Positions 11,901 to 27,910 are shown, counted from the stretch's first letter. The stretch is 63,884 nucleotides of DNA from a bacterium (GCA_037135275.1 JBAXKQ010000002.1:1-63884); one strand, 5' to 3'. Notes: generated by a model from the letters alone, not told the origin. Made by a program: numbers and translations.

Positions 11901-14900
11901 GCAGCCGACGAACAGCGCCGCCTACACGCTGGGTACTTCGAGGACCAATGGCCTCGAGTGGTACTCGGCAAGGGCCGGCGCCAACCTGGCGACCGTCTAC
12001 TACTCCACCAACGGCGTCACATACAGCGATCTCATTACCTTCAGCGGTATCGGGTTCACCGGCAACCAGGATGCGGACCCGTCCATCAACCAGAAGACTT
12101 GGGACATCTCCCGGCGGCTGATGCCGTCGCTCACGGCCCGCATCAAGGTCGTGGTCGGCACGACCGAGGCGGTTTCCAGCCAGTTCACGCTGCGCGGCAT
12201 CCGGATGATCCGCCCGGCGCTCGGGTCGGTCTACAACATCGGGGCGGTGACCAATGTCGCATGGCGGCATGCAGGGCTGTCGGCCAATCCGTTCGTCTCC
12301 AACTCCATCTCGGTGTCGGGCGAGGGTGGACCGTACGTGCAGGGCGGGCTGCCGAACAATGCGTCAGTCCTGAACCCGCTTACGCCCTGGACTGTTGACG
12401 CCGAGCTCGACCCGACGACGAACGCGGTGATCAAGATGGTTGTGACGGCGCCGGCTCAGGACACGGACGTGACGACATACTCGGATCCATTCACCCTCCG
12501 TGGAATCAAGTTCCTGAGCCCGTACACCGGTACCAACTGGGTGCTGCGCGGGCAGGTGATGGTGTCGTTCAGGGTGGCTGGGATGGGGTCCGGCGCGTTT
12601 GCCGACATCTATTACTCGGCGGACGGCGGGGCGACATTCGATACGGTCAACCCGGTGGCAAGCGGTGTGTCGGTGAATGACGGCATCGTGAGCGTGCCCT
12701 GGACGATCGAGAGTACGCCGGCCCTGACCCGGACCCCTTCCACCAACGCCTGCCTGCTGGCGGTGTGCGGTTCCTATACAAGCAGGTCCAAGACCTTCCA
12801 GGTCAGCGGGTTGAAGGTGACGGCGCCGACGGCGGCCGACGTGCTGGCGGTGTCGGATGGAACGAACACCGTCGCGTGGACGGGTGTGGGCGTGTCGGGC
12901 ACCTATAACGTCAGTTTCACCAGGTGGCCTGAGACCACGCCGGTTGACTTCAGCACCCCGGTGTGGACGGAAGTCATTGCGACCGGGGTTTCGGGGTGGT
13001 CGTGCGACTGGGCAATGACCGCCAATGCCGTCGGTTCGAACGTGACGGTCACAGTCAGTGACGGTACGTTCACGGCGACGTCCGCGGTCTTCCAGGTTGT
13101 GTCGAGCCCGGCGATCAAGATCATCAATCCCACGGCCGGCGACTTCTGGAAAGTGACCGAGACGAACGAGATCAGGTGGGTGAGGGCCGGCAACGTCTCG
13201 AACGCGTTCTCGGTGGCATGGTCCCCGTATCCGTACGAGGTTACCAATGTGCTGGCAATCGGTGCTTTCCCCCTCAGCGGCGGTGTATTCAGCTATGCCT
13301 GGGAGAACATACCGAACTCCATCGGGAAGGTGCGGATCATCGTCACCAACCAGGTCACGGAAGGCGTGAGGGACCAGTTCGAGGACTTCGAGATAGCCGT
13401 GAAGTTCGCCATCGATCCGTTGATAGGCGACCTGTTCGCCCTGCAGACCAGGGATGTCAACTGGACGACGTACGGGTCCATCTTCTCGGGGGTGGACTTC
13501 TACTATTCGCTGGACCCGTTCCGCCGGACCAACTACTGGCGCAAGATCAACACGACGCCGTTCATGGCGGTGGCGAACGAGCAGCCCAGCATATACTCGT
13601 GGCAGCTCCCGAACGTGAAGACCAACACGGTGTGGCTGCGCATCCAGGATCATGCCTACTCCAACAGGCTGTTCGACGCATCCAAGCCCGGACCCTACAA
13701 CGACCTCGGCATGCTGAATGTCAGGTATTACACGGTCTACTGGGAAGTCATGGATGCGATCACCAGCAACGACCTGGACAACCTGGCGGTGATCGACAGC
13801 TCAGGCTGGTCTCAATCGGGGCTGACATGCGCGGGAGCCAATACCATCTCGCACGAGTATCCGTGGGGCACCTGGAACACGGCGTGGATGAGGGAGTTCT
13901 TCTTCGACAATGTCGTGATGTACTGGGAGAGTGAGAACTACGCACTCGGGAGCCCTGCTGTCTGGACCCAGCAGGTATACATGGTGCGCTCGACCGTTGA
14001 GCCGGACTACCGGGCGATGGCCAATTTCTCGTACGAGACGTCGAACAAGGTCTTCACGATCCACGCCTGGCTGGAGCGCGGCGGCGAGATACTCGACACA
14101 CCAAGCAGGTGCAGGATCACGGTCTACGACGAAACCGGCAATGAGGTGCGCGTGCTGGACAGCGCCGGATCGCCGCCCGACGGCAGCCTGCTGGACTACG
14201 GCGTGTTCTGGATGGCGTGGGACGCCTCGGCGCTCAGTCCCAGCAGCGTCTATTTCGCCAGGGTGGAGATCGAGTTCTCAGGCGTGTGGTATTCGTCCGG
14301 CTTGACGTTCACGCTCAGGGTGCCGGTTGGCGAGGAGATATCCGGCATGATCGGCGGCATCTCGAACCAGGTGGCAGGCGTCTCCAACCAGGTCATTGGC
14401 GTCTATACGAGCCTCGTGGCGCACGAGGTGGAGCAGGCGGCATTCAGGGGCAGGACGGACAGCAACCTGGCCACCATTGCCTCCAGCCTCGGTGTCCTGA
14501 CCAACCTGTCCGACATGGCCACGTCGGTAAGCAACCTCGTCGCCGCCATGCAGGAGGTGGCGAAGATGACGAATATCTCCACAATGGCCGAGAGTTTGTC
14601 GAATATCTGGGATGCGGTCACGAATATCGGAGGTGTCGAGGATCAGTTGTTGCCGAAGATTACAGCCCGATCCACCACGATCAAGACCGGCAGCACGAAC
14701 ATGTTCGTCTATCGCACGAGGATGGGGCTGGGTTCGGGTCCGGTGATCACGGTCCAGAACGCGGCAGGGGCGACCAACCAGCAGGGGAGCATGGCTGAAA
14801 TCCCGAATACCGGCCTCTACAAGGCCGAGGTCGTGTTCGACCAGGGCTGGGGATTGGGCGAGTTCCCGGTTTCCTGCCGCGACAGCGCTGCTGAGAGTGC

Positions 14901-16263
14901 GCCGGGCGACCAGATCACCATCCAGGTGGTCGGCGAAGGCTACTGGACCGATGCGCAGTCACTTGCGTCAATGACCGGCCGGCTGGCGTATCTTGAGACG
15001 ACGGTCTCCAATGTGTTGGTGGTTGTCGGCGCGGCCGATTTCGGCGCTAACTTCAGCAATGTCATCGCGTCGGTCTCCAACCTGGAGACGATCGTGAACA
15101 GCACCAGCGTGTCCAACGCCGCTGCGATGGTAGTCCTGCGGTCCGATGTCAGCAACGTGCTGGCGTCGGTCACGAATCTGCAGGACCTGGTGGGCGGGAT
15201 GGGTGCATCCAATGTGGCATCGCTGGTGGCGCTCGGCGGCAACCTCAGTAATGTATTCGCGGCAGTGTCGAACCTGCAGGTTGTCGTGAGCGGTTCCGAT
15301 TCGTCCAACACGGCGGCCATGGCATCGCTGCGTTCCGATGTGAGCGATGTGCTGGCGTCGGTCACGAACCTGCAGGACCTTGTGGGCGGCATGGGCGTCT
15401 CCAATGCGGCATCGCTGGTGGCGCTCGGTGCCAACCTCAGCAATGTGTTTGCGGCAGTGTCGAACCTGCAGGATCTTGGCGCCTCGAATGCGGCATCGCT
15501 GGTGGCGCTTGAGACCAATGTCGCAACCGCACTTGGTGTCGTGAACAGTCTGGGTTCGCTGACGAACCTGGCGTCGCTCACGAGCCTTACCAACCTTGTC
15601 TCGGCGTTGGCGGACATTGACCTCACCACCATACAGTCCGGTGTCGCGGATCTTCAGACCAGGGTGAACCAGATGGACTGGGCCCTGGTGCAGCAGACCG
15701 TGGCCGGGCTTGCCGCGATGCAGGCGACTGTGGACAGCTCGTTTGCCGACATCGGCGCGCAGATCACTGCTCTCGCCGGCGTGGCGGATTCTGTTGACGC
15801 GCTCAGCCTGCAGACTGGTGCGGCGATAGCCGCCGGTGAAAAGGCTGCCAAGGAAGCGCGGTCGGCCAAGACGCAGGTGACAACACTCCAGGGGGCGCTC
15901 ACAACTCTCAGGGCGGCGCTCGGTCAGGGTGACAGGGATACCGCCATGGATATACTGGGCGGCCTCAGGGCCCAGATGGCGGATGTTCAAGGCGCAGTGA
16001 GCAAGCAGGTGAGCCTGCAGCCGGTGGTTGACGTGATGGTGCCGATAGCGGCGGACATCAACGCGCTGGCGAAGAGGAAGAATCTGGATGAACTCGTGAA
16101 CATCCCCGCCGAGCTGCGCATGCAGACGCAGGTGACTGAGCAGGGCTTGATGCAGGCGAACAACAAGATGGCCGAGATGAGCGCCGCGATCGAGTTCCTG
16201 AACAAGCTCGTCGACAGGGTGGCGAATCCGCCGGAAGTCATGACCTACTGGACAACGGAGTAG
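5941..16263 (+). CDS. Giant (3,440 aa) secreted/surface protein: 4 LamG (laminin_G_3-type) modules, about 11 Ig-like beta-sandwich repeats, C-terminal repetitive alpha-helical region
   Basis: Single uninterrupted ORF. ATG 5941 (MNFMRLF..., basic stretch then VVAATTIITLAATAAFAGSA) is preferred over GTG 5860. LamG hallmark ends are DELAVYDRALSQEEV, DEMAIYTRQLSGIEL, DEVVVFQRALSDAEV and DEVAVHDRVLQPVEI. There are recurring ~100-aa repeats such as ITPVGGSEAVRSQWQIGTTNYVRWTAAGAGSSVDITYSPDGGSSWYTIA. The C-terminal region has SNV..VSNLQ heptad-like repeats. Confidence 0.9.
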   Translation: MNFMRLFQKLYPSARTSRATRRPRIPSRLPVVAATTIITLAATAAFAGSATNTWNMSTNADYYIAPTNQPLIMIDSTQGVARLILLSDEIHRSTFGEYVTNGSAHVSTKLGPDVALSLKQLGGVYQNSGTFISRVLDSGSPANTWQKMYARATYGSIINSPAEIQTGGSGPVALYHLNSDWNDTLGLRNLSPMAGASLVTPGQFGAKCGFVDGGVSGYATSASGFPEMSKITVSMWIKASRSQSQIVQYVFGLGNLTFALHISGFYSDANSAPGSITVVVSSNPSSTTGGQFTDSKDVGVWRHIVAVYDSTAAQKTRIYKDGVELPMMSQKATGTVPTTGSMIVGMRYDKIIGFQGAIDELAVYDRALSQEEVLDLYSRGLSFFFQLRGGNTTAETTNTSNQFTGPDGTTNSYYFGENRILQTAGSFDVTNQYAQYKAYLIKDTSGNTPWFDAVTLFGDLGMDVDYSFLDFRRGDMSQSTTNYPGLSDTPYLSLAKKENGGYYTNGTYVSRAMDAGSSVNWRKFEWQAPGELTNDIQGLIALYHLKSWGDAQGVVGGDNTPASVTMADSSGSMPKLGMDCGRFDGVSSHVTGFPGLSTNIMTVEFWINDDNPQDGIMTLASYSNGPAYLAISNGIVITRGFANITPQVYVNGLTGSRKLMAGWNHVAITFDKVLAGAALDVGVANGDYMQGLMDEMAIYTRQLSGIELKAHYLLGRQSVGGVAKFAFRTADSIAALTGGVWSTESTTPFDPNSLGQYFQYRLTMEGDGSASPAVKNITVGYLNPGWQYMYDHDREAIYQGAFVGGTTKWSGDEVMLVDQSQWGPLNLSSLEAGLVGEWRLDESSWGTVSGTPGGNGTALGGAQPIVDARVGLRSAQFSVTNQYLTLGSPSVGSGDFTVGAWVKSTASNRCAIVSTFAGGAHYTLEFNGDGTTNVPGKAALVIDTAPTDKKVVASVLTDINDGRWHHVAGMRRGDTLHLYIDGDRVASANIGSAYGSVGSGTIYVGKYGTSNLFLRGQVDEVVVFQRALSDAEVGELSGTAYRVRDRGIYTSEIIDAGREVIWQTLSWNADAPYNKPLSTVYDTNIVALWHMDSNTLDSAGTFDGTLAGGAGFNSAGRFDSCLSLNGTVQWMGNITDAEELRPPNLTVEAWVYPTAVDSRIVFDKSSGGQGYQLGTDSSGRPVFKVGSVLCIDPALSLRTGAWTHLVATYSGSELALYVNGEIRARAAGSGSMGTPDARIGADGAGSGCFAGFIDEVAVHDRVLQPVEILDHYRAGAVTLKFQARSGSNATLIASAPFVGPAGTTNSYFTVATGEGLQAVIPKGQCFQYKAYLGTENHRFTPRLHGVTVESSGYSTENPAVETASGVFFPGKITTFVHTMATNNDASVRYQISGDNGATWYYWPLFTNAWVNADLYGGGWENASPVGTVNQYVGNFYRQLYEKTGVNLLWRAFLHSTGSDQVAIDAVSIGYSRGRVLVTFPSGTETDTRSLVVGTPYDITWSWLGTVSNNITVELLDGTNVVSVLGTGLPNNGVFRTVISEQRGTNYYIRVKDGNDPNNIWDLSDGPFWLREQLHMTSPDGGEKWYIGRTNLVRWDSPKWGAQNLVGPIDIWFSGDAGTNWFVVATPTNASGTNVYYWNTPLTNWQFVSENARMGVATPGAFDPASAFYGDISDGTYTNAGIVVTFPATGNAVNMGEATTLEWYAAGAGSHGVTVDFFDGVAWTNISTNATCVPGYNTLGCVLEAKDPSEAARIRITANDDPVNVTGISGIFILADINIITPVGGSEAVRSQWQIGTTNYVRWTAAGAGSSVDITYSPDGGSSWYTIASGWANTNSSVGNVVTNVSPPWVVAGPPSSNSMIRVKSVSQSSLFATTPPYFDVSGVQVTYPNGGEYWEFGRTNLATWLHQAAGANVGIDCAYISSPTTNDYENIVASASIFNGRWVIPAANVRRPTTVGKLRIRAISPPSGIPMEDYSDATFTIRGLSVTQPTNSAAYTLGTSRTNGLEWYSARAGANLATVYYSTNGVTYSDLITFSGIGFTGNQDADPSINQKTWDISRRLMPSLTARIKVVVGTTEAVSSQFTLRGIRMIRPALGSVYNIGAVTNVAWRHAGLSANPFVSNSISVSGEGGPYVQGGLPNNASVLNPLTPWTVDAELDPTTNAVIKMVVTAPAQDTDVTTYSDPFTLRGIKFLSPYTGTNWVLRGQVMVSFRVAGMGSGAFADIYYSADGGATFDTVNPVASGVSVNDGIVSVPWTIESTPALTRTPSTNACLLAVCGSYTSRSKTFQVSGLKVTAPTAADVLAVSDGTNTVAWTGVGVSGTYNVSFTRWPETTPVDFSTPVWTEVIATGVSGWSCDWAMTANAVGSNVTVTVSDGTFTATSAVFQVVSSPAIKIINPTAGDFWKVTETNEIRWVRAGNVSNAFSVAWSPYPYEVTNVLAIGAFPLSGGVFSYAWENIPNSIGKVRIIVTNQVTEGVRDQFEDFEIAVKFAIDPLIGDLFALQTRDVNWTTYGSIFSGVDFYYSLDPFRRTNYWRKINTTPFMAVANEQPSIYSWQLPNVKTNTVWLRIQDHAYSNRLFDASKPGPYNDLGMLNVRYYTVYWEVMDAITSNDLDNLAVIDSSGWSQSGLTCAGANTISHEYPWGTWNTAWMREFFFDNVVMYWESENYALGSPAVWTQQVYMVRSTVEPDYRAMANFSYETSNKVFTIHAWLERGGEILDTPSRCRITVYDETGNEVRVLDSAGSPPDGSLLDYGVFWMAWDASALSPSSVYFARVEIEFSGVWYSSGLTFTLRVPVGEEISGMIGGISNQVAGVSNQVIGVYTSLVAHEVEQAAFRGRTDSNLATIASSLGVLTNLSDMATSVSNLVAAMQEVAKMTNISTMAESLSNIWDAVTNIGGVEDQLLPKITARSTTIKTGSTNMFVYRTRMGLGSGPVITVQNAAGATNQQGSMAEIPNTGLYKAEVVFDQGWGLGEFPVSCRDSAAESAPGDQITIQVVGEGYWTDAQSLASMTGRLAYLETTVSNVLVVVGAADFGANFSNVIASVSNLETIVNSTSVSNAAAMVVLRSDVSNVLASVTNLQDLVGGMGASNVASLVALGGNLSNVFAAVSNLQVVVSGSDSSNTAAMASLRSDVSDVLASVTNLQDLVGGMGVSNAASLVALGANLSNVFAAVSNLQDLGASNAASLVALETNVATALGVVNSLGSLTNLASLTSLTNLVSALADIDLTTIQSGVADLQTRVNQMDWALVQQTVAGLAAMQATVDSSFADIGAQITALAGVADSVDALSLQTGAAIAAGEKAAKEARSAKTQVTTLQGALTTLRAALGQGDRDTAMDILGGLRAQMADVQGAVSKQVSLQPVVDVMVPIAADINALAKRKNLDELVNIPAELRMQTQVTEQGLMQANNKMAEMSAAIEFLNKLVDRVANPPEVMTYWTTE
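15030..15510 (+). repeat. In-frame tandem repeat (192-nt / 64-aa period, about 2.5 copies) inside the giant gene
   Basis: The unit starting at 15109 (GTGTCCAACGCC...) recurs at 15301 (TCGTCCAACACG...) with near-identical blocks (GTGCTGGCGTCGGTCACGAA[T/C]CTGCAGGACCT). The sub-block AATG[T/C]GGCATCGCTGGTGGCGCT is present three times. Confidence 0.85.
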
Positions 16264-16471: not shown

Positions 16472-17785
16472 ATGAACATCACTGGTGTGGGACGGGGCGC
16501 CGTGGTGCCGGCATGGCGGTTTCTCGTGCTGTTTCTCCTCTCCGGTGTCTTGGCGGGCGGTGTATACGCGCAAGGCAACATTGTCCTGGCCATCAAGGCC
16601 GTCAATCCCACGCAAACCGACAGCACCGTCAGGGTCAGCGCATTGCTGCCGAAGGGAGTCAAGCCTGCGGATGTGGTGGACGCGGCCGGCATGGAAGTGA
16701 AGTATGATCCCAATGTGGCCCTGTACTGTGTCCGTGCCGAGGAGAGGCTGCCGGCGGGTGGCAACAGGGAATACCGGGTGGTGCTGCGGGATATCTGGGT
16801 TGTGCCGGCTGAGCTTATCGCCGAGCTGCGCACCCACGCCGTCGGGCTTGCCGGGCAGCTTGCCGGAACCAAGCGCAAAGACTCGGCCGCATCGATCAGG
16901 ATGCGGATCGAGGGCGGCCTGGACCAGCTGGAAAAGTGGCAGGAGCGGTATCGCGCCGGTCCCAGCGCCACGCCAGTCGCCCACATACAGGCGTACGGCC
17001 GCAGCATGGATCTCCTGAAGCGGGTGATTGATGACACCGGGATACTCGAAACCCAGGCGAAAGACGAGGGCATCTATGTGCCCAAGCCACTTGGACCGCC
17101 GCCGCCCCGCGCGGAGGCCGGTGAAGCGGCAGTCGGTGAGACGCCGCGCAAAATCAGGCTGGATATCCGCAATGCCGGCAGGACAGAGCAAAAGATTCCC
17201 GTCCGGAGTTACCTCCCGCGCGAGGTGCGTCCCGAGGACGTGAGCGGCGATGACCGTGTCGAGGTCAGGTACGATGCCGAGCGGAGCGCCTGCTACCTTT
17301 TCAGCGAGGGCATAGCCGTAGGCCCCAATGAGACGGTGAACATAGAGGTGCTGGTGGCAGACCGGTGGATAGTGGCGCCGGGGCGGTACGCATTACTCGA
17401 GACCAAGGCCACCAACGTGCAGGCAAAGGCGGTTCTTGCCGGCCGTGATGATGTCAAGAACCAGGCCCAGGCGCTGTTGAACCAGCTAGTGACGGTACGG
17501 GCGGCCGAGCGGCCGCCGTTCGGCGACGAGTATATCGCGGATTACCACCGGAAGGTGGAAGACGTCGACAGGATCGAGGAGGAGCTTCTCAAGCTTGAGG
17601 CACGGATGGCGCCGTCCCAGGAGCGACCGATATTCGATGCCTCGGTATTGAACCAGGTCGAGGCGCCGAGCCGGAGCACGACATGGATCATAGTCTTCAC
17701 GGTAATTGGCTTTCTTTTCTTCTTCAGCGTGCTATTGTTCCTTCGCTGGTACGGCAAGGCCAAGGACGAAACAATGTCAGGGTGA
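16472..17785 (+). CDS. Orphan exported protein with N-terminal signal peptide, two tandem copies of a beta-rich + helical module, and a C-terminal TM anchor
   Basis: ATG 16472 gives MNITGVGRGAVVPAWRFLVLFLLSGVLAGGVYAQG. Internal duplication: LLPKGVKPADVVDAAGMEVKYDPNVALYCV vs YLPREVRPEDVSGDDRVEVRYDAERSACYLF, and REYRVVLRDIWVVPAELIAEL vs ETVNIEVLVADRWIVAPGRYALL. C-terminal TM is TTWIIVFTVIGFLFFFSVLLFLRWY. The stop lies 2 nt before the alpha1 ATG. Confidence 0.75.
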   Translation: MNITGVGRGAVVPAWRFLVLFLLSGVLAGGVYAQGNIVLAIKAVNPTQTDSTVRVSALLPKGVKPADVVDAAGMEVKYDPNVALYCVRAEERLPAGGNREYRVVLRDIWVVPAELIAELRTHAVGLAGQLAGTKRKDSAASIRMRIEGGLDQLEKWQERYRAGPSATPVAHIQAYGRSMDLLKRVIDDTGILETQAKDEGIYVPKPLGPPPPRAEAGEAAVGETPRKIRLDIRNAGRTEQKIPVRSYLPREVRPEDVSGDDRVEVRYDAERSACYLFSEGIAVGPNETVNIEVLVADRWIVAPGRYALLETKATNVQAKAVLAGRDDVKNQAQALLNQLVTVRAAERPPFGDEYIADYHRKVEDVDRIEEELLKLEARMAPSQERPIFDASVLNQVEAPSRSTTWIIVFTVIGFLFFFSVLLFLRWYGKAKDETMSG

Positions 17786-17787
17786 CG

Positions 17788-19251
17788 ATGGACCTGAAGA
17801 TAAATCTCCTGCAATTGAAGGAACGCGGCGTTGTCGCGGAGATGAAGCAGGATATTGTGCACATCTCCGGCCTTGCCAACTGCATGAACGGCCAGCTCGT
17901 CCAGATCAGCGATGCGGCCGAGGGTGTTATCGTCGGTTTCGACCAGGAATACGCACTTGTCCTGCTGGTTGAGCAGCACGGCACAGTCAAGCCGGGTGAC
18001 CAGGCGACGTCGCTGATCAAGTCGTTTTCCATCCCGGTCGGCGACGGGTTCATAGGCCGGCGTGTTGACGCGCTGGCCGCCCCGCTGGACGGCCGCGGGC
18101 CGATCAATGCCACCAGGCAATACCCCATATTCGGGAAGGCGCCGTCGGTGCTCGAACGGCGGCAGCTTACCGAGGTCCTGCCCATGGGTGTGAAGATACT
18201 GGACATGATGATACCGATAGGCAAGGGGCAGCGCGAACTGATCATCGGCGACCGAATGACCGGCAAGACCACCGTAGCGACCGATGCCATTCTCATGCAG
18301 AAGCACACCGGCACGATCTGTGTCTACTGCTGCATCGGCAAGGCAGAGGCGTCGCTCGGGAAGGTGATCGAGCTGTTCGATACCAACGACGTCTGGAAAT
18401 ACGGCATAATCGTGGCCGCGACGGCGTCCGATTCCATGGGGAAGCAATACCTCGCGCCCTACGTCGCAACGAGCATTGGTGAGTACTTCATGTACGAAAA
18501 GGGTATGGATGTGCTGGTGGTTTTCGACGACCTGACGAAGCACGCCTGGACCTACCGGCAGATGTCGCTGCTCCTCGAGCGCTCCCCTGGCCGCGACGCC
18601 TACCCCGGGGATATTTTCTATCTCCACTCGCAGCTGGTTGAAAGGGCGGGCAGGTTGAGCATAACGCGGGGCGGTGGCTCCATGACCCACCTGCCGATCA
18701 TTGAGACCCTGCAGGGGGACGTGACGGGCTATATTCCATCTAACACAATTTCGATGACCGACGGGCAGGTCTACATGAACACGACCCTCTTCGGTGAGGG
18801 TTTCAAGCCGGCCATCGACGTCAAGCTGTCCGTATCTCGTATCGGCAGCAAGGTCCAGTGGCGAGCGATGAAGACCCTGGCCGGAATGATGCGGCTGGAA
18901 TACCTGAACTTCCTCCAGCTGCTCAAGCTGACGCGGGTCAAGGCTGGGGTTTCAGCCGAGGTGGAGGGCCGTCTCCGGCGCGGCAAAGTGGTGGCTGAAC
19001 TGCTCAAGCAGCCCAACAACGCGCCGGTACCGATGGAAGAGCAGGTTGTAACCCTCTACGCTTTCAGGGAAGGCTTTTTCGACGATGTCCAGCCGGAGAA
19101 TGTCCAGGCGCGGCTTGAGACCCTGTTGTCGAGCATGAGGCGCGGCAGGCCGGAGTTGATGGCCGAGCTGGTCAGGCAAAAGGATCTTACCGAGGAAATC
19201 AAGGAGGGGCTCAAGCATGAGTTCGCTCGGCTCCGGAATTCCGCTGTTTAA
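17788..19251 (+). CDS. atpA: F-type ATPase alpha subunit paralogue 1 (487 aa, divergent)
   Basis: GDRMTGKTTVATDAILMQK, DDLTKHAWTYRQMSLLLERSPGRDAYPGDIFYLHSQLVERAGR and LSVSRIG (Arg finger retained, CGT 18838-18840). ATG at 17788 follows the upstream TGA (17783-17785). Confidence 0.85.
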   Translation: MDLKINLLQLKERGVVAEMKQDIVHISGLANCMNGQLVQISDAAEGVIVGFDQEYALVLLVEQHGTVKPGDQATSLIKSFSIPVGDGFIGRRVDALAAPLDGRGPINATRQYPIFGKAPSVLERRQLTEVLPMGVKILDMMIPIGKGQRELIIGDRMTGKTTVATDAILMQKHTGTICVYCCIGKAEASLGKVIELFDTNDVWKYGIIVAATASDSMGKQYLAPYVATSIGEYFMYEKGMDVLVVFDDLTKHAWTYRQMSLLLERSPGRDAYPGDIFYLHSQLVERAGRLSITRGGGSMTHLPIIETLQGDVTGYIPSNTISMTDGQVYMNTTLFGEGFKPAIDVKLSVSRIGSKVQWRAMKTLAGMMRLEYLNFLQLLKLTRVKAGVSAEVEGRLRRGKVVAELLKQPNNAPVPMEEQVVTLYAFREGFFDDVQPENVQARLETLLSSMRRGRPELMAELVRQKDLTEEIKEGLKHEFARLRNSAV

Positions 19252-19252
19252 A

Positions 19253-20716
19253 ATGAAGCTGGCCGAGATCGGCCATGTTCGGGACGTGAAGAAGATCATC
19301 GCCCGCGTCACCGGCCTGCCGTCGTGCCTCAACGGCCAGCTGGTTGATTTTGGCGAGGGGGTGCGCGGCATCGTCATGGGCTTTGACCGCGAGGACGTCC
19401 TCGTCCTGGTCCTGGGCGACGAGACCAAGCTCCGCATGGGCAAGCCCGTCACAGGGATCAGCGAGCCGTTCACGATCCCGGTCGGTGAGAAATGCATCGG
19501 CCGCATGATCAACGCCCTGGGCGAGGCCGTGGACGGCAAGCAGTTGATCGTGCCTGATATGCGCCGCGCGGTCATGCGCGATTCACCCTCGATCACCGAC
19601 CGTGGCCCCGTGAATGAACCGCTCCTGACAGGCACCAAGGTGGTGGATATCTTCATCCCGGTTGGCAAGGGGCAGCGCCAGTTGATCGTCGGCGACCGCA
19701 TGACCGGCAAGACTGTCATCGGGGTCGACGCGATCGTCAACCAGAAGGGCAAGGATGTTATCTGCATCTACTGCTGCATCGGGAAGGCGATGTCGTCGCT
19801 CGAGAAAGCGGTCAGCGTCCTCCACGACTCCGGCGCGCTCGAGTACACGATTGTCATGCTCGCCCTCGACAACGCGCCGGCCGGGGAGCAGTACCTGCTC
19901 CCCTCGGCGGCCGCGACAATGGGCGACTACTTTGCCGAGAGCGGGCGCGATGTGCTGGTTGTCCTTGATGACATGACCAAGCACGCGTGGGCCTACAGGC
20001 AGCTCTCCCTGCTGCTCGAGCGGCCGCCGGGTCGCGAGGCTTATCCTGGCGACATCTTCTACGAGCACACGAAGATCATGGAACGGGCGGGCCGCTACTG
20101 CGAGAAGAAGGGCGGCGGGTCGATGACGTTCCTGGGCATTGCCGAGACGCTGGAAGGCGACCTGACCGGCTACATCCCGTCGAACCTCATATCCATGTGC
20201 GACGGGCTGGTGTTCCTGAGCAATCCGCTGTTCGGCAGCGGAATCCGGCCGGCGGTGGACTTCACGCTGTCGGTGTCGATCGTGGGAGGCAGAACCCAGC
20301 CACCCGTGCTGAGGGCGGTAAGCGCCGACCTGCGGGTCCAGTACGCCCATTATCTCGAGGTGTCAAAACTGAGCAAGCTCCAGGCCAGCGTGTCGGCCGA
20401 GGCTGAACGCGTGATACGGCGCGGTGAGGCGATAGCCTCGATCGTCCAGCAGGGGCAGTTTGCGCCGGTGTCCCTCGCGGAGGAAGTTGTTTTGGCGTTC
20501 GCCACGCACCGCGGCAGGCTGGACAGGCTGTCGGTCGAACAGCGGAAAGCCTTCTGCAAAGATGTGTTTGGTTTTACCCGCAGGAAGAAGCCGGATATCC
20601 TGGACCTCATCACCGAGGAGGCCGAATTGACTGTGGAGCTCGAGAAGAAGCTCAACGAGCTCCTGGACGAGTACTTTGCCCAGGACGACGGCGGCGGGCA
20701 GCAGGCGCAGCAGTGA
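19253..20716 (+). CDS. atpA: F-type ATPase alpha subunit paralogue 2 (487 aa, Arg-finger position substituted)
   Basis: GDRMTGKTVIGVDAIVNQK and DDMTKHAWAYRQLSLLLERPPGREAYPGDIFYEHTKIMERAGR. LSVSIVGG replaces SVSRVG (ATC 20279-20281). ATG 19253 is 1 nt after the alpha1 TAA. Confidence 0.85.
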   Translation: MKLAEIGHVRDVKKIIARVTGLPSCLNGQLVDFGEGVRGIVMGFDREDVLVLVLGDETKLRMGKPVTGISEPFTIPVGEKCIGRMINALGEAVDGKQLIVPDMRRAVMRDSPSITDRGPVNEPLLTGTKVVDIFIPVGKGQRQLIVGDRMTGKTVIGVDAIVNQKGKDVICIYCCIGKAMSSLEKAVSVLHDSGALEYTIVMLALDNAPAGEQYLLPSAAATMGDYFAESGRDVLVVLDDMTKHAWAYRQLSLLLERPPGREAYPGDIFYEHTKIMERAGRYCEKKGGGSMTFLGIAETLEGDLTGYIPSNLISMCDGLVFLSNPLFGSGIRPAVDFTLSVSIVGGRTQPPVLRAVSADLRVQYAHYLEVSKLSKLQASVSAEAERVIRRGEAIASIVQQGQFAPVSLAEEVVLAFATHRGRLDRLSVEQRKAFCKDVFGFTRRKKPDILDLITEEAELTVELEKKLNELLDEYFAQDDGGGQQAQQ

Positions 20717-20741
20717 CGGGGCGACGGGGGAATGGTTTCAC

Positions 20742-20972
20742 ATGTTTCACGTGACGATTCTCAACCCGAAGCACGTGGTTTTTGAAGGTGATGCGGAGAG
20801 CGTGTTCCTGCCGGGTGACAAGGGTGAGTTCGAGATTCTGACGTTTCACGCCCCGATACTGAGCCTGTTGAAGCCGGGCAAAGTTGTGGTAGACTGGAAA
20901 ACGACCATACCGATAAAGAACGGAATGGTTAAGTTCGATCACAAGGGTTGTGTGGTGCTGGTGCAGGAATGA
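20742..20972 (+). CDS. atpC: F-type ATPase epsilon subunit, beta-sandwich domain only (76 aa)
   Basis: MFHVTILNPKHVVFEGDAESVFLPGDKGEFEILTFHAPILSLLKPGKVVV resembles the epsilon N-terminal domain. The ORF ends before any C-terminal helical hairpin. The stop overlaps the next start (ATGA 20969-20972). Confidence 0.7.
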   Translation: MFHVTILNPKHVVFEGDAESVFLPGDKGEFEILTFHAPILSLLKPGKVVVDWKTTIPIKNGMVKFDHKGCVVLVQE

Positions 20973-21193
20973 ACATATTCAGAAATATCGTGGTCTTTCT
21001 CGTGCTGCTGGTGACGATTCTCGGGCCTTCAGCGGTTATTGCCGCCATCGGCCACGCGAGCATAAGGGCCCTCGGACGGAACCCGTCCGCGGCCCCGAAG
21101 ATCATGCAGGCAATGATCGTTGCGCTGATTTTCTCGGAGTCGATCGCGGTGATCGCGCTCCTGATACTGTTTCAGCTGTTCGCCGGCAAGTAG
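20969..21193 (+). CDS. atpE: F-type ATPase c subunit (74 aa hairpin)
   Basis: Two hydrophobic helices joined by a polar loop GRNPSAAP (cf. ARQPE). Helix 2 is IVALIFSESIAVIALLILF, with the conserved carboxylate at Glu57 (GAG 21137-21139). Confidence 0.75.
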   Translation: MNIFRNIVVFLVLLVTILGPSAVIAAIGHASIRALGRNPSAAPKIMQAMIVALIFSESIAVIALLILFQLFAGK

Positions 21194-21227
21194 TCCGGTC
21201 TCCTGTTGAAATTATGAAAGGGCAAAC

Positions 21228-21983
21228 ATGGACATGGGTATCCTGAAGGAAATGGCCGGTTCTCTGGCGATCATCCTGGTCGCGCAGTTCGTCGTATTCG
21301 CTGTGATCGTCATCGTTCTCCGGAAGCTGCTGCTCAGCGACACGATGAGCGCGATCAGCCGGATGAAGACGGTGGAATCCGAGCTGGCGAAGAAGGAGGA
21401 CGTGATCAGGCAGCGGATGGACGCCCACGAGCAGGAGTTCCTGAAAAAGCAGGCTGCCGCCCAGGAGGAGATTGATCGGCGCCGCGCGGCCGACGAACAG
21501 GATCTCGGCCGGCTGAAGGACAGGATCAAGGCGGAGGCCAAGACCGAGGCGGACAAGATCCTGGGCGACGCGCAGCTGGCCAAGGAGCGCATCCGCGAGC
21601 AGCTGGTCCGCGAGATGGCCGGCAAGGCCGTTGAGTACGCCGGCGACCTCTTCAAGATGGTCGTCAGCAAGAATGTGGGCGAGAAGCTCAATATGGCGTT
21701 TGTCGAAGAGCTGATAGGCGCCCTGTCGGAGGTGGACGAGACGAGCATCCACGTCGAGGCAAACGAGTCCGAGTTCATTGCCAGCCACAAGCTGGACCCG
21801 GCCCAGAAGGGCCGGCTCGAGGCGCTGCTGGCCCAGAAGTTCGGCGTGACGATCAACATCAACGAGAAGATCGACGAGACCCTGCTGGCGGGCCTGGTCA
21901 TCAAGCTGGGCAGCCTGGAAATTGACGGAAGCCTCCTGAATCGCTACAAGGAAGGCGTGAGCGAGATCAAGAAGCAGGTCTAG
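21228..21983 (+). CDS. F-type ATPase b subunit fused to a delta (OSCP)-like C-terminal domain
   Basis: N-terminal TM (LAIILVAQFVVFAVIVIVL), a long charged helix (EQEFLKKQAAAQEEIDRRRAADEQDLGRLKDRIKAEAKTEADKIL), and a C-terminal LLAGLVIKLGSLEIDGSLLNRYKE typical of delta C-termini. Confidence 0.65.
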   Translation: MDMGILKEMAGSLAIILVAQFVVFAVIVIVLRKLLLSDTMSAISRMKTVESELAKKEDVIRQRMDAHEQEFLKKQAAAQEEIDRRRAADEQDLGRLKDRIKAEAKTEADKILGDAQLAKERIREQLVREMAGKAVEYAGDLFKMVVSKNVGEKLNMAFVEELIGALSEVDETSIHVEANESEFIASHKLDPAQKGRLEALLAQKFGVTININEKIDETLLAGLVIKLGSLEIDGSLLNRYKEGVSEIKKQV

Positions 21984-22028
21984 CGTTGCAGTGGCGGGGC
22001 CCCTCAGGGGCGGACGGGGGAGATTGAC

Positions 22029-22949
22029 GTGCAGCTGAGCGAGCTAAAGAAGGAGATGAAGTTCAACAAGGAACTGCTGTCCCTTGCCGGCACGCTCAAG
22101 AATGTCGCCAGCTCCAAGTATCACATGCTGGAGCGCGAAAAGGAGCGGTTCGGGCAGTTCATGGAGGCCTTCACGGACTTCTTCAAGGTCGTCAACCTCG
22201 CCGATACGCATCATCCCCTCGTTCGCAGCGCCAACGACACTCTGGGCATCATCGCGGTCACATCCGACTCGGGCTTCATGGGCGGCCTCAACGCGGGAAT
22301 AATCGAGACGGTTCACAAGTTGCAGGGCGAAAGGCCCGACGACAAGACTGAGCTGATCGTTATCGGCGAGAAGGGCGCGGCAAAGCTCTCGGATGCCGGC
22401 CGCAAATTCAAGTTCTTCAATGGCATCGAGAACGAGACCCGGTACGAACAGGCCCTCGAAGTGACCGACTACGCCGTAAGGGAGGTCGAGGAAGGCCGGA
22501 TCGGCGTCCTTGTGCTTGTCTATCCCAACTCGCTCTCGTTCACGCGCCAGGTGATAGAGACAATCACCGTCCTGCCGTGCGCCGAACTGTTCGACAAGAA
22601 CATACCGGATCCCGGGGCGGAAAAGATCGAGGGCCACGGGGTCCTGGCGTCGTCGAGAAGAGTGGTCATCGAGTCGGCGTTTGAGGACATGGTCGAGTAC
22701 CTGGCGCGGACGTGGGTGGCGTCGAAGCTTTATGAGGTGTTCGAGGACAGCAAGCTGTCGGAGTTCGGAGCAAGGGCGATGCACCTGGAAGGCAGTGAGC
22801 AGAAGATGGAGAAGGAGTTGAAAAAGCTCCAGTACCGTGTCTTCAGGGCGTCGCACGAGAAGATCGACAAGGGTATGCGCGAGAGCTTCTCGGCCGGCAA
22901 TATCAGGAAGAAGAAGAGGAAGGCTGAAGCCAGGGCGGCCGCCGCCTGA
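22029..22949 (+). CDS. atpG: F-type ATPase gamma subunit (306 aa)
   Basis: LGIIAVTSDSGFMGGLNAGI (cf. STDRGLCGGLN), EEGRIGVLVLVYPNSLSF, and C-terminal helix SEFGARAMHLEGSEQKMEKELKKLQYRVFRASHEKIDKGMRE. GTG start. Confidence 0.75.
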   Translation: MQLSELKKEMKFNKELLSLAGTLKNVASSKYHMLEREKERFGQFMEAFTDFFKVVNLADTHHPLVRSANDTLGIIAVTSDSGFMGGLNAGIIETVHKLQGERPDDKTELIVIGEKGAAKLSDAGRKFKFFNGIENETRYEQALEVTDYAVREVEEGRIGVLVLVYPNSLSFTRQVIETITVLPCAELFDKNIPDPGAEKIEGHGVLASSRRVVIESAFEDMVEYLARTWVASKLYEVFEDSKLSEFGARAMHLEGSEQKMEKELKKLQYRVFRASHEKIDKGMRESFSAGNIRKKKRKAEARAAAA

Positions 22950-22993
22950 GGCGGCGGTGTCCGCGGGTCAGTCACAACAAGGAGACTCTAGAA

Positions 22994-24388
22994 ATGACCG
23001 AGGCATCCCAGTTTCAGGCGAAGCCGCCGAGGAAGGGCAAGGTTATCGGTGTGCAGGGGCCCGTCGTTGACGTGCTGTTTGCCACGGTGGAGGACATGCC
23101 GGACCTCAACGAGGTCGTGCACGCCCGGACTTTCGACAAGAAGGACGTCAAGCTGCTGGCGGCCGAACACCTGGAGGGCAACATCGCCAGGTGCATAGCG
23201 CTGTCCTCGACCCAGAACCTGCAGCGCAATTCCGTCGCAACGGCGGAGGGACAGGCGCTCACGATACCAGTGGGCAAGGAGTTGTTCGGCCGCATCATCA
23301 ACTGTATGGGTGATCCCATCGACGGCCTCGGCCCGATCGTCACGTCACAGAGGTCATCCATCCACAGGGACGTCAGCAGCGTGCGCGTCGACGTCGACAA
23401 GGCCGGTTCCAAGCTTGAGCTGTTCGAGACTGGCATCAAGATCATCGACCTGCTGTTCCCCGTCATGAAGGGGACGAAGACCGGCATGCTCGGCGGCGCG
23501 GCCTGCGGCAAGACGGTCATCATCCTCGAGCTCATCAACAACGTCGTGTCGAAGCACAGCGGGGCCTGCGTCTTCGGCGGCATCGGCGAGCGCATCAGGG
23601 AAGGCAACGAACTCTTCAACGACTTCCAGGACCACGGCGTTCTCGGCAAAATCATGATGGCGTTCGGCCAGATGGATGAGCCGCCCGGAGCCCGCTTCAA
23701 CGTGATCCTGACGGCCATTACACTCGCAGAATGGCTGCAGTCCCAGAAGACGGAAGTGCTGCTGTTCCTGGACAACGTATACCGCTTTGTCCAGGCGGGC
23801 GCGGAGATCTCCACGCTGCTTGGCAGGGTGCCGTCCGAAACCGGCTACCAGCCTACGCTCAGCTCGGAGGTCGGCGACGTGCACGAGAGAATCAAGGGCT
23901 CGGTCTCGGCGTTCGAGGCGGTCTATGTGCCGGCGGACGACCTGACCGACCCGGCTGTCGTGACCATCTTCAGCTACCTGGATTCGGTGCTGGTGCTTTC
24001 ACGCGACATGGTCCAGCTCGGGTTGTACCCGGCTATCGACCCACTCGCATCCTCCTGCAGCAACATGAACGCGGCAATCGTCGGTCAGCGCCACTTCGGC
24101 GTCGCCCAGGAGGTGATCAGGATCCTGACAAAGTACGACGAGCTGAGGCGTATCGTGGCGGTTATCGGGCTGGACGAGCTCTCGAAGGCCGATCGCATCC
24201 TCTACGAACGGGCGAAGAAGCTCCAGAATTTCCTTACGCAGCCGTTCTGCGTCGCGGAGGCCTACACTGGCAAGAAGGGGGTCTATGTGACGGTCGAGGA
24301 GTCCATCGCAGGGGCCGAGTCCATCATCGACGGGCGAATGGACAGCAGGCCCGACGAGTCCTTCTACATGATCGGCAAGATCGAGTAA
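22994..24388 (+). CDS. atpD: F-type ATPase beta subunit (464 aa, divergent P-loop)
   Basis: GGAACGKTVIILELINN, GIGERIREGNELF, QMDEPPGARF, LLFLDNVYRFVQAGAEISTLLGRVPSETGYQPTL and DELSKAD. Confidence 0.9.
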   Translation: MTEASQFQAKPPRKGKVIGVQGPVVDVLFATVEDMPDLNEVVHARTFDKKDVKLLAAEHLEGNIARCIALSSTQNLQRNSVATAEGQALTIPVGKELFGRIINCMGDPIDGLGPIVTSQRSSIHRDVSSVRVDVDKAGSKLELFETGIKIIDLLFPVMKGTKTGMLGGAACGKTVIILELINNVVSKHSGACVFGGIGERIREGNELFNDFQDHGVLGKIMMAFGQMDEPPGARFNVILTAITLAEWLQSQKTEVLLFLDNVYRFVQAGAEISTLLGRVPSETGYQPTLSSEVGDVHERIKGSVSAFEAVYVPADDLTDPAVVTIFSYLDSVLVLSRDMVQLGLYPAIDPLASSCSNMNAAIVGQRHFGVAQEVIRILTKYDELRRIVAVIGLDELSKADRILYERAKKLQNFLTQPFCVAEAYTGKKGVYVTVEESIAGAESIIDGRMDSRPDESFYMIGKIE

Positions 24389-24398: not shown

Positions 24399-26036
<1,638 letters not shown>

Positions 26037-26146: not shown

Positions 26147-27364
26147 ATGCCGCGTTTCACCTACAAGGCCAGGAATGCCGAGCTCAAGACCATCGAGGGC
26201 GAACTCGTTGCCGGGAACGAGGCGGAGGCCCTGGCCCGGCTCGATGCCATGGGCTATTGCCCTGTGTGGGTGAGGGAGATGGCGCAAGAGCCGGAGGATG
26301 CGATTCCGCGTGCGCGCCGGCGTGAGAGAATCCCGCACCGTGAAGTCACGGTTTTCACCCGCCAGATGGTCGGGCTCACGAAGTCGGGCGTGCCAATTCT
26401 CAAGGCATTGCGTACGGTCAGGGAACAGAGCGCCAACCCGAGGTTCTGCGCCGTCCTCGCCCACCTGGAGGAAACGGTCAGGGATGGGAGGATGCTGTCC
26501 GAGGCGCTCGCGCAGCATCCGCACGTGTTTTCACAGCTGTACGTCAACATGGTGCGGGCGGGCGAATCGGCCGGAATCCTTGATGTCATCCTCCTGCGGC
26601 TCGCGGAAGCGAGGGAGCGGGAGGACGCCATCAGGCGGAAGCTGCAGGCGGCTTCGGTCTATCCGCTGCTGGTGCTGGCCGTGGGCGTGGTCACAGTCTT
26701 TGTGGTCATTACATTCTTCATGCCGAAGATAGCCGGGATGTTCAGGAATGTTGACGACCTGCCGCTGCCGACGGCGCTGCTGATCGGCCTCAGCGAGGGC
26801 ATCCGGCACTACTGGCCCTGGGTGCTGGTGCCGGCGGTGCTGCTGGCTGCGATACTCAGGCGCATAGGCTCCGGGGCAAAAGGCAGGGCGATCCTGGACA
26901 ACGCCAGGCTGCGGCTGCCTCTCATCGGGGCTTTCACGCTGCAGGCGGAAATGGCCCGTTTCTCGCGGACCATGTCCCTCCTCATCAGCGCCGGCATACC
27001 GGTCGAGAAGGGTCTTGCCTTGAGCGCCGACACCATGACCAATAGCGTACTCAGGAACGAGATGGATGAGGTGCGGCGAACAACGGTGCAGCAGGGCAGG
27101 TCAATCGCCTCGGGCCTGAAGAACTCGAGGCACGTTCCGGCTTACCTGCAGAGCATGGCGGCTGTCGGCGAGGAGGGCGGAAGGCTGGATGAGGCGTTTG
27201 CCGACGTTGCCTTCTACTACGAGAACGAGCTCGAGCGGCAGATCGGCATGATGACGTCGCTGGTGGAGCCCATCCTGATCCTGGTCGTCGGGGCCGTGGT
27301 GGGGTTTATCGTTTTCGCGATGATGCTGCCGATATTCGAAATGACGAAGTCGATGGCCAGGTGA
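26147..27364 (+). CDS. gspF: Type II secretion / T4P platform protein (GspF/PilC family)
   Basis: 405 aa. MPRFTYKARNAELKTIEGEL... start, duplicated T2SSF-type halves and three hydrophobic segments. Confidence 0.9.
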   Translation: MPRFTYKARNAELKTIEGELVAGNEAEALARLDAMGYCPVWVREMAQEPEDAIPRARRRERIPHREVTVFTRQMVGLTKSGVPILKALRTVREQSANPRFCAVLAHLEETVRDGRMLSEALAQHPHVFSQLYVNMVRAGESAGILDVILLRLAEAREREDAIRRKLQAASVYPLLVLAVGVVTVFVVITFFMPKIAGMFRNVDDLPLPTALLIGLSEGIRHYWPWVLVPAVLLAAILRRIGSGAKGRAILDNARLRLPLIGAFTLQAEMARFSRTMSLLISAGIPVEKGLALSADTMTNSVLRNEMDEVRRTTVQQGRSIASGLKNSRHVPAYLQSMAAVGEEGGRLDEAFADVAFYYENELERQIGMMTSLVEPILILVVGAVVGFIVFAMMLPIFEMTKSMAR

Positions 27365-27490
27365 CGGCTGGTCCGGCAATCTCCAGTACGCGTATTTCAA
27401 TTCCCACAGTTTAAGGGTGTACGCTGGGATCGCTGTGCTGTATATTCGTGACGTATTGAGGCCGGTATTGTATCCATGGAGGTGTGCACC

Positions 27491-27910
27491 ATGCGCACGC
27501 GCAACCCGCGATCGGCATTCACGCTGATCGAGATCATGATAGTTGTCATCATTCTCGCAGCCCTCGCGGCCATGGTGGTGCCTTACCTGGGCGATGTGCC
27601 CGACACGGCCAAGAGCAGGATTGCGAAGGTGGAGATCAAGTCCATCGGCACGGCCCTTCAGCTCTACAAGCTCGAAACAGGCGGGTTTCCGAAGGACCTT
27701 GCGGCGTTGCAGTCCGTTCCACAGGGGGTTGCCGGGAGGACGACAAAGTACCTCATGAACGACCCCATTGACCCGTGGGGCGCCCAGTACAAGTACAAGT
27801 ATCCAGGGACGCGACAGAATACACCCGGTTATGACCTGTACTCGACCGGCCCCAATAAGTTTGACGACAATGGCGCCACCGATGACATCACCAACTGGAA
27901 ACAGGACTAG
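27491..27910 (+). CDS. gspG: Major pseudopilin (GspG-like)
   Basis: MRTRNPRSA|FTLIEIMIVVIILAALAAMVVP prepilin N-terminus, plus KVEIKSIGTALQLYKLETGGFP and DPWG...Y.Y typical of GspG. GGAGGTG lies 6 nt upstream of ATG 27491 (the listed ORF starts at 27476). Confidence 0.85.
   Translation: MRTRNPRSAFTLIEIMIVVIILAALAAMVVPYLGDVPDTAKSRIAKVEIKSIGTALQLYKLETGGFPKDLAALQSVPQGVAGRTTKYLMNDPIDPWGAQYKYKYPGTRQNTPGYDLYSTGPNKFDDNGATDDITNWKQD

Follow-up and report, generated by a model that had tools for sequence, protein, structure and literature searches.

An F-type ATPase module without subunit a, linked to type II secretion-like genes

We analyzed a stretch of bacterial DNA of 63,884 nucleotides (GCA_037135275.1, JBAXKQ010000002.1:1-63884; hereafter, the window) in which seven consecutive genes encode homologs of the F-type ATPase subunits alpha, alpha, epsilon, c, b/delta, gamma, and beta. 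We hold with high confidence that they encode a repurposed, secretion-linked F-type ATPase devoid of subunit a. The main clue to its function is the set of secretion genes that begins 10 nt past the end of beta and that had gone unnoticed in the first-pass annotation of this DNA: the ATPase genes are a fixed module of a gene cluster resembling a type II secretion system (T2SS), i.e., of the type IV filament superfamily. Our more specific reading, in which we have moderate confidence, is that of an accessory ATPase that would only hydrolyze ATP, turning its c-ring without any flow of ions and performing mechanical work for the secretion or pilus apparatus. The first-pass annotation had proposed a functionally reassigned rotary ATPase rather than the housekeeping enzyme. 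This is strongly supported by the linkage to GspE (93 of 95 loci), the absence of subunit a at the loci, the losses of the c carboxylate, the second alpha devoid of an arginine finger, and the truncated epsilon.

The ATPase genes and their link to secretion genes

All seven genes are on the + strand (Table 1), as initially annotated, and Pfam backs the assignment of each. The same annotation had reported that neither subunit a nor atpI is present at the locus. This extends to the whole 64-kb window, where transmembrane (TM) prediction finds neither of the two, the gaps between the ATPase genes being small. The window proteins with three or more predicted TM helices are only GspF, two AcrB-type pumps, a CDP-alcohol phosphatidyltransferase, and a 454-aa protein at 40.6-42.0 kb. 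The gene order is also, as had been noted, unlike that of the N-ATPases (atpDCQRBEFAG), and genes for Q, R, and a are lacking. Judging from sequence, a complete F1 head, a central stalk, a c-ring subunit, and a peripheral stalk are encoded. The putative peripheral stalk is a single protein with a TM helix at the N terminus, a long b-like helix, and a delta/OSCP-like C-terminal part; it matches, over its full length and below threshold, the NCBIfam models of the long b subunit of N-ATPases (TIGR03321) and of the mycobacterial b/delta protein.

The catalytic subunits are the least divergent in terms of existing models. Both alphas pass the NCBIfam cutoff for atpA (TIGR00962; 514 bits for alpha1 and 493.5 bits for alpha2, against 484), and beta passes that for atpD (TIGR01039; 545 against 463). 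The closest solved structure to beta is 2qe7 (469 bits). The other four proteins pass the broader Pfam domain models and no equivalog-level model: gamma scores 82 against a cutoff of 194 (TIGR01146), epsilon 49 against 67, and c at best 19 against 122, while every b and delta model stays below its cutoff for the window proteins. Public records label these ATPase-like genes as subunits of F0F1 ATP synthase.

The downstream genes, encoding GspE, GspF, pseudopilins, GspL, and GspM, can clearly be assigned to the T2SS/type IV filament superfamily. GspE and GspF miss the strict NCBIfam equivalog cutoffs (571 against 630 and 344 against 424, respectively), and the ortholog of the GspM-like protein in another locus (L002) has a weak T2SSM match. 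The secretin (GspD) and GspC were not found in the cluster of the window or among its scanned proteins; a secretin may be encoded in another part of the genome. All ATPase and gsp genes are on the same strand with minimal spacing, from which we judge that the ATPase module is probably cotranscribed with the T2SS-like system; a scan for promoters and terminators returned nothing above chance.

This arrangement is widespread. Close relatives of the window beta, with 70-94% identity, are abundant in metagenome-assembled genomes (MAGs) of Lentisphaerae, Kiritimatiellia, and Verrucomicrobiota, and the first three contexts inspected have the same gene order. With a gamma alignment as the query, one genome of each GTDB species was scanned. 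The 72 loci obtained were then profiled with our own hidden Markov models, their taxon labels being taken from the MAG records. The carriers are Kiritimatiellia, Lentisphaerae/Victivallales, other members of the Planctomycetota-Verrucomicrobiota-Chlamydiota (PVC) superphylum, and Omnitrophota. An independent scan of metagenomes with a c-subunit alignment provided 80 further loci, about 40 of which exceed 6 kb. In the 72-genome set, the PVC order is essentially invariant: unk-alpha1-alpha2-epsilon-c-b/delta-gamma-beta-GspE-GspF-GspG...GspL-GspM, where unk is a gene matching no known family. An Omnitrophota-type variant, found in three Omnitrophota loci and in one MAG labeled "Verrucomicrobiota" (L071), has a single alpha and the order (unk)-epsilon-c-b/delta-alpha-gamma-beta, followed by GspE. 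More distant members keep the same logic. On a long contig (L078), we found a giant gene followed by unk-alpha-epsilon-c-b/delta-gamma-beta-GspE(+PilZ)-GspF-GspG. On the metagenome contig SRR22388197_307091 (L082), whose gamma is 28% identical to that of the window, the ATPase genes (epsilon to beta, 7855-11477) lie between a secretin gene, which adjoins them, and GspE, in the order secretin-TPR-epsilon-c-b/delta-gamma-beta-GspE(+PilZ)-GspF-GspG...PilMN. The same three architectures recur in the approximately 40 metagenome loci above 6 kb.

Across the non-redundant loci with a visible downstream gene, GspE is at most 600 nt from beta in 93 of 95 cases. The median gap between the two is 24 nt in the genome-derived set (10 nt in the window). 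Within the ATPase cluster, the median gaps are at most 63 nt in the genome-derived set, where none exceeds 400 nt, and the median is 11 nt in the metagenome set. Since the same gene set is seen in more than 100 independent loci, its assembly is not due to chance. One could still imagine a functionless, decaying remnant of an ATP synthase operon, given the loss of subunit a and the unusual motifs. We give next to no credence to this idea, because the conservation data effectively refute it: the seven open reading frames (ORFs) are intact in well over 100 loci, identity is 70-94% for beta among its 120 closest relatives and about 85-95% for c across phyla, and gene order and tight spacing are preserved.

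The gamma family as a whole includes 231 clusters at E≤1e-10 among the 1.84 billion cluster representatives that were searched, many of them 25-45% identical to the window gamma. In the window and in the family, gamma ends in a Lys/Arg-rich tail (e.g., RKKKRKAEARAAAA), and canonical gammas have no such tail. A lone full-length gamma-like gene, 31% identical to the gamma of locus L005, was observed on a 179-kb contig (JGI 3300042261; L080, 10001-10894). Its neighborhood looks archaeal (eIF2-alpha, ribosomal S27e, RIO1, SRP54) and includes no other ATPase subunit nearby.

Residues of the catalytic head and the c-ring

The first-pass annotation had listed changes at normally invariant positions and argued that the catalytic features were nevertheless retained. 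The changed motifs can be read in the translations: GDRMTGKT in both alphas, CIGKA where IGQK is usual, and GGAACGKT in beta. This last one is a minority form, most relatives having GGAGCGK[TS]. The retention of catalytic features is borne out by the relatives. The beta motifs GGAxCGK[TS] and G(E)RIREGNE (GERIREGNE in the window), the Walker B region, YVPADDLTDPA, and DELS are conserved family-wide, and the arginine finger motif SVSRIG, present in the window alpha1, is found in all 65 alpha1 and single alphas.

The second alpha is different. It keeps the P-loop, and Ile or Val replaces the arginine finger in all 62 copies (SVSIVG in the window). The flanking sequence makes plain that this position is homologous to Arg373 of bovine alpha (motif SVSRVGSAAQ). 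The two alphas share about 43% identity, and both begin some 22-25 residues into the canonical alpha models. The bit scores of alpha2 are slightly higher against the alphas of the family (450-520) than against natural solved alphas (at most 420), which suggests that it arose by duplication inside the family; canonical PVC alphas were outside this comparison, which is thus not decisive. It was lost in two PVC loci (L038 and L041) that are nested among two-alpha relatives in the beta tree.

The epsilon subunit consists of the N-terminal domain only, family-wide, its median length being 87 aa even if each ORF is taken from its earliest possible start. The C-terminal domain of epsilon is the one that inhibits hydrolysis in bacterial F1.

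The c subunit is about 85-95% identical even across phyla, and its cytoplasmic loop ALGRNPSAA, which contacts gamma and epsilon, is invariant in 100% of the sequences. In ion-translocating c subunits, the carboxylate is the invariant residue. Here, the window has Glu at this position (FSESIAV), and the 72 gamma-derived loci have Glu in 63 cases, Met in 5, Gln in 3, and Gly in 1. In a non-redundant alignment, this column is conserved at 87%, below some 40 other positions conserved at 97-100%. The replacements correspond to at least six independent events on the beta tree. The loci without the Glu include the two that lost alpha2 and seven others (L039, L059, L026, L074, L030, L031, and L071), of which six keep alpha2 and L071 has a single alpha. 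The c-derived metagenome set contains only Glu and cannot be used to estimate these losses, because one of the search patterns itself contains the Glu. These data suggest that the c carboxylate is dispensable in several lineages.

Could these genes nevertheless be part of a housekeeping ATP synthase that was split, an ordinary F1Fo with atpB and atpI elsewhere in the genome and an incidental proximity to secretion genes? The model scores of alpha1, alpha2, and beta, which pass the atpA and atpD cutoffs, and the public annotation agree with it, as does the Glu kept in most c subunits, and atpB was not searched for genome-wide. We find this explanation very unlikely. GspE remains linked to the ATPase genes in different phyla and in relatives whose gamma is only about 25% identical, the carboxylate was repeatedly replaced by Met, Gln, or Gly with all other genes intact, the arginine finger is gone from every alpha2, epsilon lacks its C-terminal part, and no equivalog cutoff is reached by gamma, epsilon, c, or b/delta. 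Furthermore, complete Omnitrophota genomes reportedly have V/A-type ATPases beside F-type alpha and beta without a recognizable gamma. A 2026 preprint on Omnitrophota counted F1Fo alpha/beta in 125 of 176 complete genomes and gamma in 30 of 176, with V/A-type ATPases in most Gorgyraeia. These alpha/beta counts may include the cluster described here, whose divergent gamma would miss strict thresholds, and the preprint may thus provide indirect support for the coexistence of the cluster with a separate housekeeping ATPase. In metabolic reconstructions of these uncultured groups, the genes are probably counted wrongly as an incomplete housekeeping ATP synthase.

Relation to known ATPases and secretion systems

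The module resembles several known systems and matches none of them. Like canonical F1Fo (atpIBEFHAGDC), it has homologs of alpha, beta, gamma, epsilon, c, and b/delta, the catalytic motifs of beta, and a c hairpin with the R-x-P loop. Its Omnitrophota-type order c-b/delta-alpha-gamma-beta even mirrors the canonical one. It differs in that subunit a and AtpI are missing, the c carboxylate is variable, the C-terminal domain of epsilon is gone, b and delta are in one protein, the alphas begin later, the second alpha of PVC bacteria has no arginine finger, and the genes are embedded in a secretion operon. Because there is no subunit a and the carboxylate is not invariant, we do not class it as a canonical F1Fo. 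The N-ATPases are, as the module probably is, additional F-type paralogs (laterally mobile ones) with a long b subunit and no separate delta. Yet, they keep subunit a and AtpQ/R, have a Na+-type c, and pump ions. The corresponding models (TIGR03324/03305/03323/03321) give the window proteins scores far from their cutoffs (alpha, 467 and 492 against 750; beta, 481 against 752; gamma, 28 against 282; b, 41 against 225).

Among known systems, the co-opted F1-like ATPases of Mycoplasma are those whose way of working would be most like that of the module. The type 2 (G1, the gliding motor) and type 3 (F1-like X0, MIB-MIP) enzymes are F1-derived and non-bioenergetic, and probably perform mechanical transmembrane work; surface machinery is genetically linked to their clusters, which also encode a protein with a signal peptide and membrane proteins whose fold is not known (PMC12994834; PMC3369863). 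The type 3 enzyme was shown in 2026 to be required for the MIB-MIP surface system (PMC12994834). The Mycoplasma clusters have seven genes including one for a 12-TM protein, lack c and b/delta, and are found only in the wall-less Mollicutes, whereas the module described here has c and b/delta, lacks the 12-TM protein, and has a T2SS-like apparatus as a partner in diderm bacteria. The models of the Mycoplasma families NF045863/NF045858/NF045936/NF045934 remain below cutoff (396 and 375 against 600; 410 against 850; 304 and 270 against 520; 376 against 570), and among F-type structures the solved G1 beta matches the window beta least well (330 bits, where canonical betas reach 469). The module thus falls outside the N-ATPases and the Mycoplasma type 2/3 families by its model scores, its gene content, and its taxa.

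The flagellar and type III secretion (T3SS) ATPase complexes (FliI/SctN-FliJ/SctO-FliH/SctL) provide a different precedent, that of an F1-related ATPase serving a secretion machine, with homologs of alpha/beta, gamma, and b/delta. The module could by analogy be a non-rotary export or assembly chaperone, in the style of FliI-FliJ-FliH, that unfolds, loads, or energizes substrates such as giant proteins or pseudopilins, the c-ring and the stalk being mere anchors. The T3SS ATPase complexes are textbook homologs of F1 acting on a secretion system, FliI/SctN models also match the window proteins, very large secreted proteins are encoded upstream, and the number of alpha genes in the cluster varies from 0 to 2, all of which would suit such a chaperone. 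We consider it unlikely, since the full rotor (gamma, the N-terminal domain of epsilon, the invariant c loop) and the peripheral stalk are conserved and would be unneeded for a simple anchor. Also, T2SS substrates normally cross the inner membrane via Sec or Tat and are secreted folded, as textbooks have it, and the FliI/SctN models score far below the F-type ones (160-185 bits against approximately 500-545 for atpA/atpD). The T3SS complexes differ from the module in being homo-hexamers without a c-ring or alpha/beta differentiation, and the partner of the module is a type IV filament system.

As for the partner, the downstream genes look like an ordinary core set of T2SS or type IV pilus (T4P) genes (GspE with MshEN, GspF, pseudopilins, GspL/M). 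To our knowledge, and in the literature that we searched, an F-type ATPase module has not been described for any T2SS or T4P system. Neither did our searches on ATPase-secretion links, on the carrier lineages, and on giant genes retrieve a description of this system, and NCBIfam release 20 has no dedicated model for this ATPase family. A preprint on giant genes describes T2SS-like loci beside such genes, with no mention of ATP synthase; the description of Kiritimatiella and a paper on deep-sea PVC bacteria contain nothing relevant. We see the module as a new member of the co-opted F-type ATPases, one that keeps c and b/delta and has a T2SS-like partner.

The proposed motor and the neighboring genes

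How could such a module work? In our preferred reading, beta and alpha1, joined in PVC bacteria by the alpha2 without arginine finger, would form the catalytic head. Gamma, the epsilon reduced to its N-terminal domain, and the c-ring would form the central rotor, and the membrane-anchored b/delta-like protein the peripheral stalk. When the beta sites fire, gamma, epsilon, and the c-ring would turn against the head held by the stalk. A peripheral stalk is required only for resisting torque. Because both the central and the peripheral stalk are conserved, head and ring probably still counter-rotate. No ion would cross the membrane during this movement: half-channels are not encoded and the inhibitory domain of epsilon is missing, for which reasons the complex is probably an ATP-driven motor only, without ion transport. 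The output would be torque or cyclic mechanical work within the inner membrane. A load is to be expected, since a freely spinning ring would be futile, and the candidates are the TM/periplasmic protein encoded by unk and the GspE/F/L/M platform. The work could be handed to this platform, to Unk through its invariant TM helix, or to both. Large proteins destined for the surface or for secretion, for instance the 3,467-aa LamG protein encoded upstream in the window, would be what the entire system handles. As for alpha2, the lack of an arginine finger should inactivate the adjacent catalytic site, and the subunit may impose asymmetry, slow stepping, or regulation.

Several observations weigh against this interpretation. 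The contig L082 has no alpha within 20 kb, and one Omnitrophota locus (L068) has just gamma-beta-GspE. The adjacency of beta and GspE is broken in L058 and L071, with GspE 4.5 kb downstream in the latter. The absence of subunit a is established for the approximately 115 related loci long enough to judge, the rest of the carrier genomes not having been searched for it. A few apparent gaps in the metagenome set are larger, up to 2,183 nt in L165; they look like genes missed by our profiles or overlapping hits, an explanation that was not checked one by one. With no arginine finger in alpha2, one catalytic interface or more would be crippled, and this is hard to square with smooth three-step rotation. 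The Glu is kept in 88% of the unbiased set, as one would expect if it bound ions together with a stator partner that we did not recognize. Finally, that the complex rotates, that it hydrolyzes ATP without transporting ions, in which direction it operates, and what its load is are all deduced from sequence.

The point on the Glu leads to another explanation: an ion-coupled machine, either a pump or an ion-driven motor, in which a non-homologous stator replaces subunit a. This stator could be the TM helix of Unk, that of b/delta, or GspF. The protein Unk is encoded directly upstream of the ATPase genes in most loci. According to an AlphaFold2 model (8-sequence alignment; pLDDT, predicted local distance difference test, of 77), Unk has a signal peptide at one end and a C-terminal TM helix at the other. 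Between them is a predicted periplasmic region in which a unit made of a beta-sandwich and then a three-helix bundle occurs twice. A Foldseek search of the PDB with this model returned no match below E=0.02, just generic beta-sandwich similarities. The TM helix is nearly invariant (PPSxKTTWLIIYIILGFLxxxSLLFFLRWYG), and this suggests a specific intramembrane contact. Its conserved Ser and Arg would suit a stator, as would the position of unk in the Omnitrophota-type order, where it fills the usual atpI/atpB slot, and the Glu kept in 63 of the 72 loci, often as Glu-Ser, a pair reminiscent of c subunits of the Na+ type. But the carboxylate was lost at least six times independently in clusters that are otherwise intact, a single TM helix cannot make the two half-channels known from textbook accounts of subunit a, some variants, L082 for one, have no unk, and no channel-forming candidate was found. 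We considered the Arg of Unk as a substitute for the arginine of subunit a and rejected it: it is at the cytoplasmic end of the helix, at the membrane edge instead of mid-membrane, it is kept regardless of the state of the c Glu, with no co-variation, and it is replaced in L022, L063, and L066. We therefore regard an ion-coupled machine with a non-homologous stator as quite unlikely.

Our preferred reading, of a motor that hydrolyzes ATP without moving ions, can be carried one step further. We tentatively propose, as a possibility that we favor less than the motor itself, a composite nanomachine in which the channel-less F1 head and the c-ring would be an ATP-driven rotary engine geared to the type IV filament (T2SS-like) apparatus. 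In PVC bacteria, Omnitrophota, and related uncultured lineages, secretion, the dynamics of the pseudopilus, or the movement of giant surface adhesins would be driven by torque passed across the inner membrane through the c-ring and either the TM helix of Unk or the GspF/L/M platform. If true, a c-ring would be used here for the first time as a purely mechanical rotor, and a T2SS-like system would for the first time have a second motor, from a class other than that of its first.

The textbook view is one of tight coupling between head and channel. Here, the channel subunit is missing at the loci and the ion-binding residue of the ring seems dispensable, while the remainder is under strong selection. 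This points to a use of c-rings other than ion transport. The strict linkage to T2SS-like genes suggests a new way to power or regulate type IV filament machines and may help explain how giant surface proteins are deployed in Omnitrophota, Kiritimatiellia, and Lentisphaerae. The loci also provide a natural series of variants, with 0, 1, or 2 alphas in the cluster and c with or without Glu, for the study of how rotary motors are repurposed.

Some features hint at a control of the system by cyclic di-GMP, because GspE has an MshEN domain, the GspE of distant relatives carries a C-terminal PilZ domain (L078, 10664-12880; L082, 11479-13746), and in the Omnitrophota locus L069 (4869-6902) the homolog of Unk is fused to a cytoplasmic GGDEF diguanylate cyclase domain. 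The window GspE itself has a sub-threshold match to the model of the MshE-type cyclic di-GMP motif.

Table 1. Features of the ATPase/secretion cluster and of its surroundings. Positions are those of the window unless a locus is named
Feature	Position (nt)	Strand	Evidence and remarks
Giant 3,467-aa ORF, candidate cargo or adhesin	5860-16263	+	Several LamG/concanavalin-like domains; Pfam Laminin_G_3 5.8e-78
unk	16472-17785	+	437 aa; directly upstream of alpha1; no Pfam or NCBIfam hit
alpha1 (F1 alpha-like subunit 1)	17788-19251	+	P-loop and arginine finger kept; Pfam ATP-synt_ab 1.9e-70
alpha2 (F1 alpha-like subunit 2)	19217-20716	+	35-nt overlap with alpha1; P-loop kept; Pfam ATP-synt_ab 1.3e-66
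epsilon	20742-20972	+	76 aa, N-terminal beta-sandwich alone; Pfam ATP-synt_DE_N 3.6e-15 across the entire protein
c subunit	20969-21193	+	74-aa hairpin; start overlaps epsilon stop; ATP-synt_C 27.6 bits (cutoff 24)
b/delta-like peripheral-stalk protein	21228-21983	+	Pfam OSCP 40 bits (cutoff 22.3), plus weak ATP-synt_B
gamma	22029-22949	+	306 aa; GTG start; divergent; Pfam ATP-synt 1.7e-33
beta	22994-24388	+	464 aa; catalytic motifs intact; Pfam ATP-synt_ab 1.7e-59
GspE/PilB-type assembly ATPase	24399-26036	+	N-terminal MshEN; Pfam T2SSE 1.3e-128, MshEN 1.1e-19; start 10 nt past beta stop
GspF/PilC platform protein	26147-27364	+	Pfam T2SSF 1.2e-57; TIGR02120 GspF 1.3e-102
GspG major pseudopilin	27476-27910	+	Pfam T2SSG 2.8e-18, N_methyl 9e-07
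Minor pseudopilin-like ORF	27768-28268	+	Prepilin-type N-terminal motif GFTLIETLVSVTILAFG in translation; true start probably internal, just before GFTLIETLV
GspJ-like minor pseudopilin	28004-28918	+	N_methyl 1.5e-06, T2SSJ 2e-06; true start probably internal
GspK-like minor pseudopilin	28896-29954	+	Pfam T2SSK_1st 7.5e-11
GspL-like assembly-platform protein (PilM-like and PilN-like)	29944-31392	+	PilM_2 1.1e-10, PilN 7.1e-05
GspM-like small bitopic protein, final gene of the unit	31389-31937	+	No Pfam hit in the window; position kept in most loci
Opposite-strand 431-435-aa polytopic protein	L045 13981-15288; L138 12763-14058; L144 15028-16335	-	L045 copy: no Pfam hit

The giant protein encoded upstream of unk has a repeat-rich C-terminal part, rich in Ala, Ser, Asn, and Val, with a 96-nt tandem repeat in 3.2 copies at 15173-15478. 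This part is conserved upstream of unk in at least 20 related loci. The slot for a large protein upstream of the module varies, and other loci have there a TSP3/beta-helix or a CarboxypepD_reg protein.

Polytopic ORFs near the related clusters were considered as candidates for subunit a. Pfam assigned seven of the eight that were scanned to unrelated families (among them TauE, PntB, prepilin peptidase, VTT, DUF7544, and MotA/ExbB) and none to ATP-synt_A; the eighth, encoded on the opposite strand and 435 aa long, matched no Pfam family. Clusters of a Victivallales-like subgroup end after GspE and are followed on the opposite strand by a gene for a protein of 431-435 aa with 9-11 predicted TM helices. 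In this subgroup, GspF and the later genes must be encoded away from the cluster.

The 454-aa window protein mentioned above has about three TM helices, is unassigned, and sits 16 kb from the ATPase genes. It is encoded on the minus strand in a set of overlapping or adjacent genes (40593-43820) with a Ser/Thr protein kinase and a DUF2167 protein, and the set is unrelated to the ATPase finding. Farther along (52226-63068), the window encodes two successive resistance-nodulation-division efflux sets, the first with an outer-membrane factor, an HlyD-type adaptor, and an AcrB-type pump, and the second with another outer-membrane factor and an AcrB-type pump.

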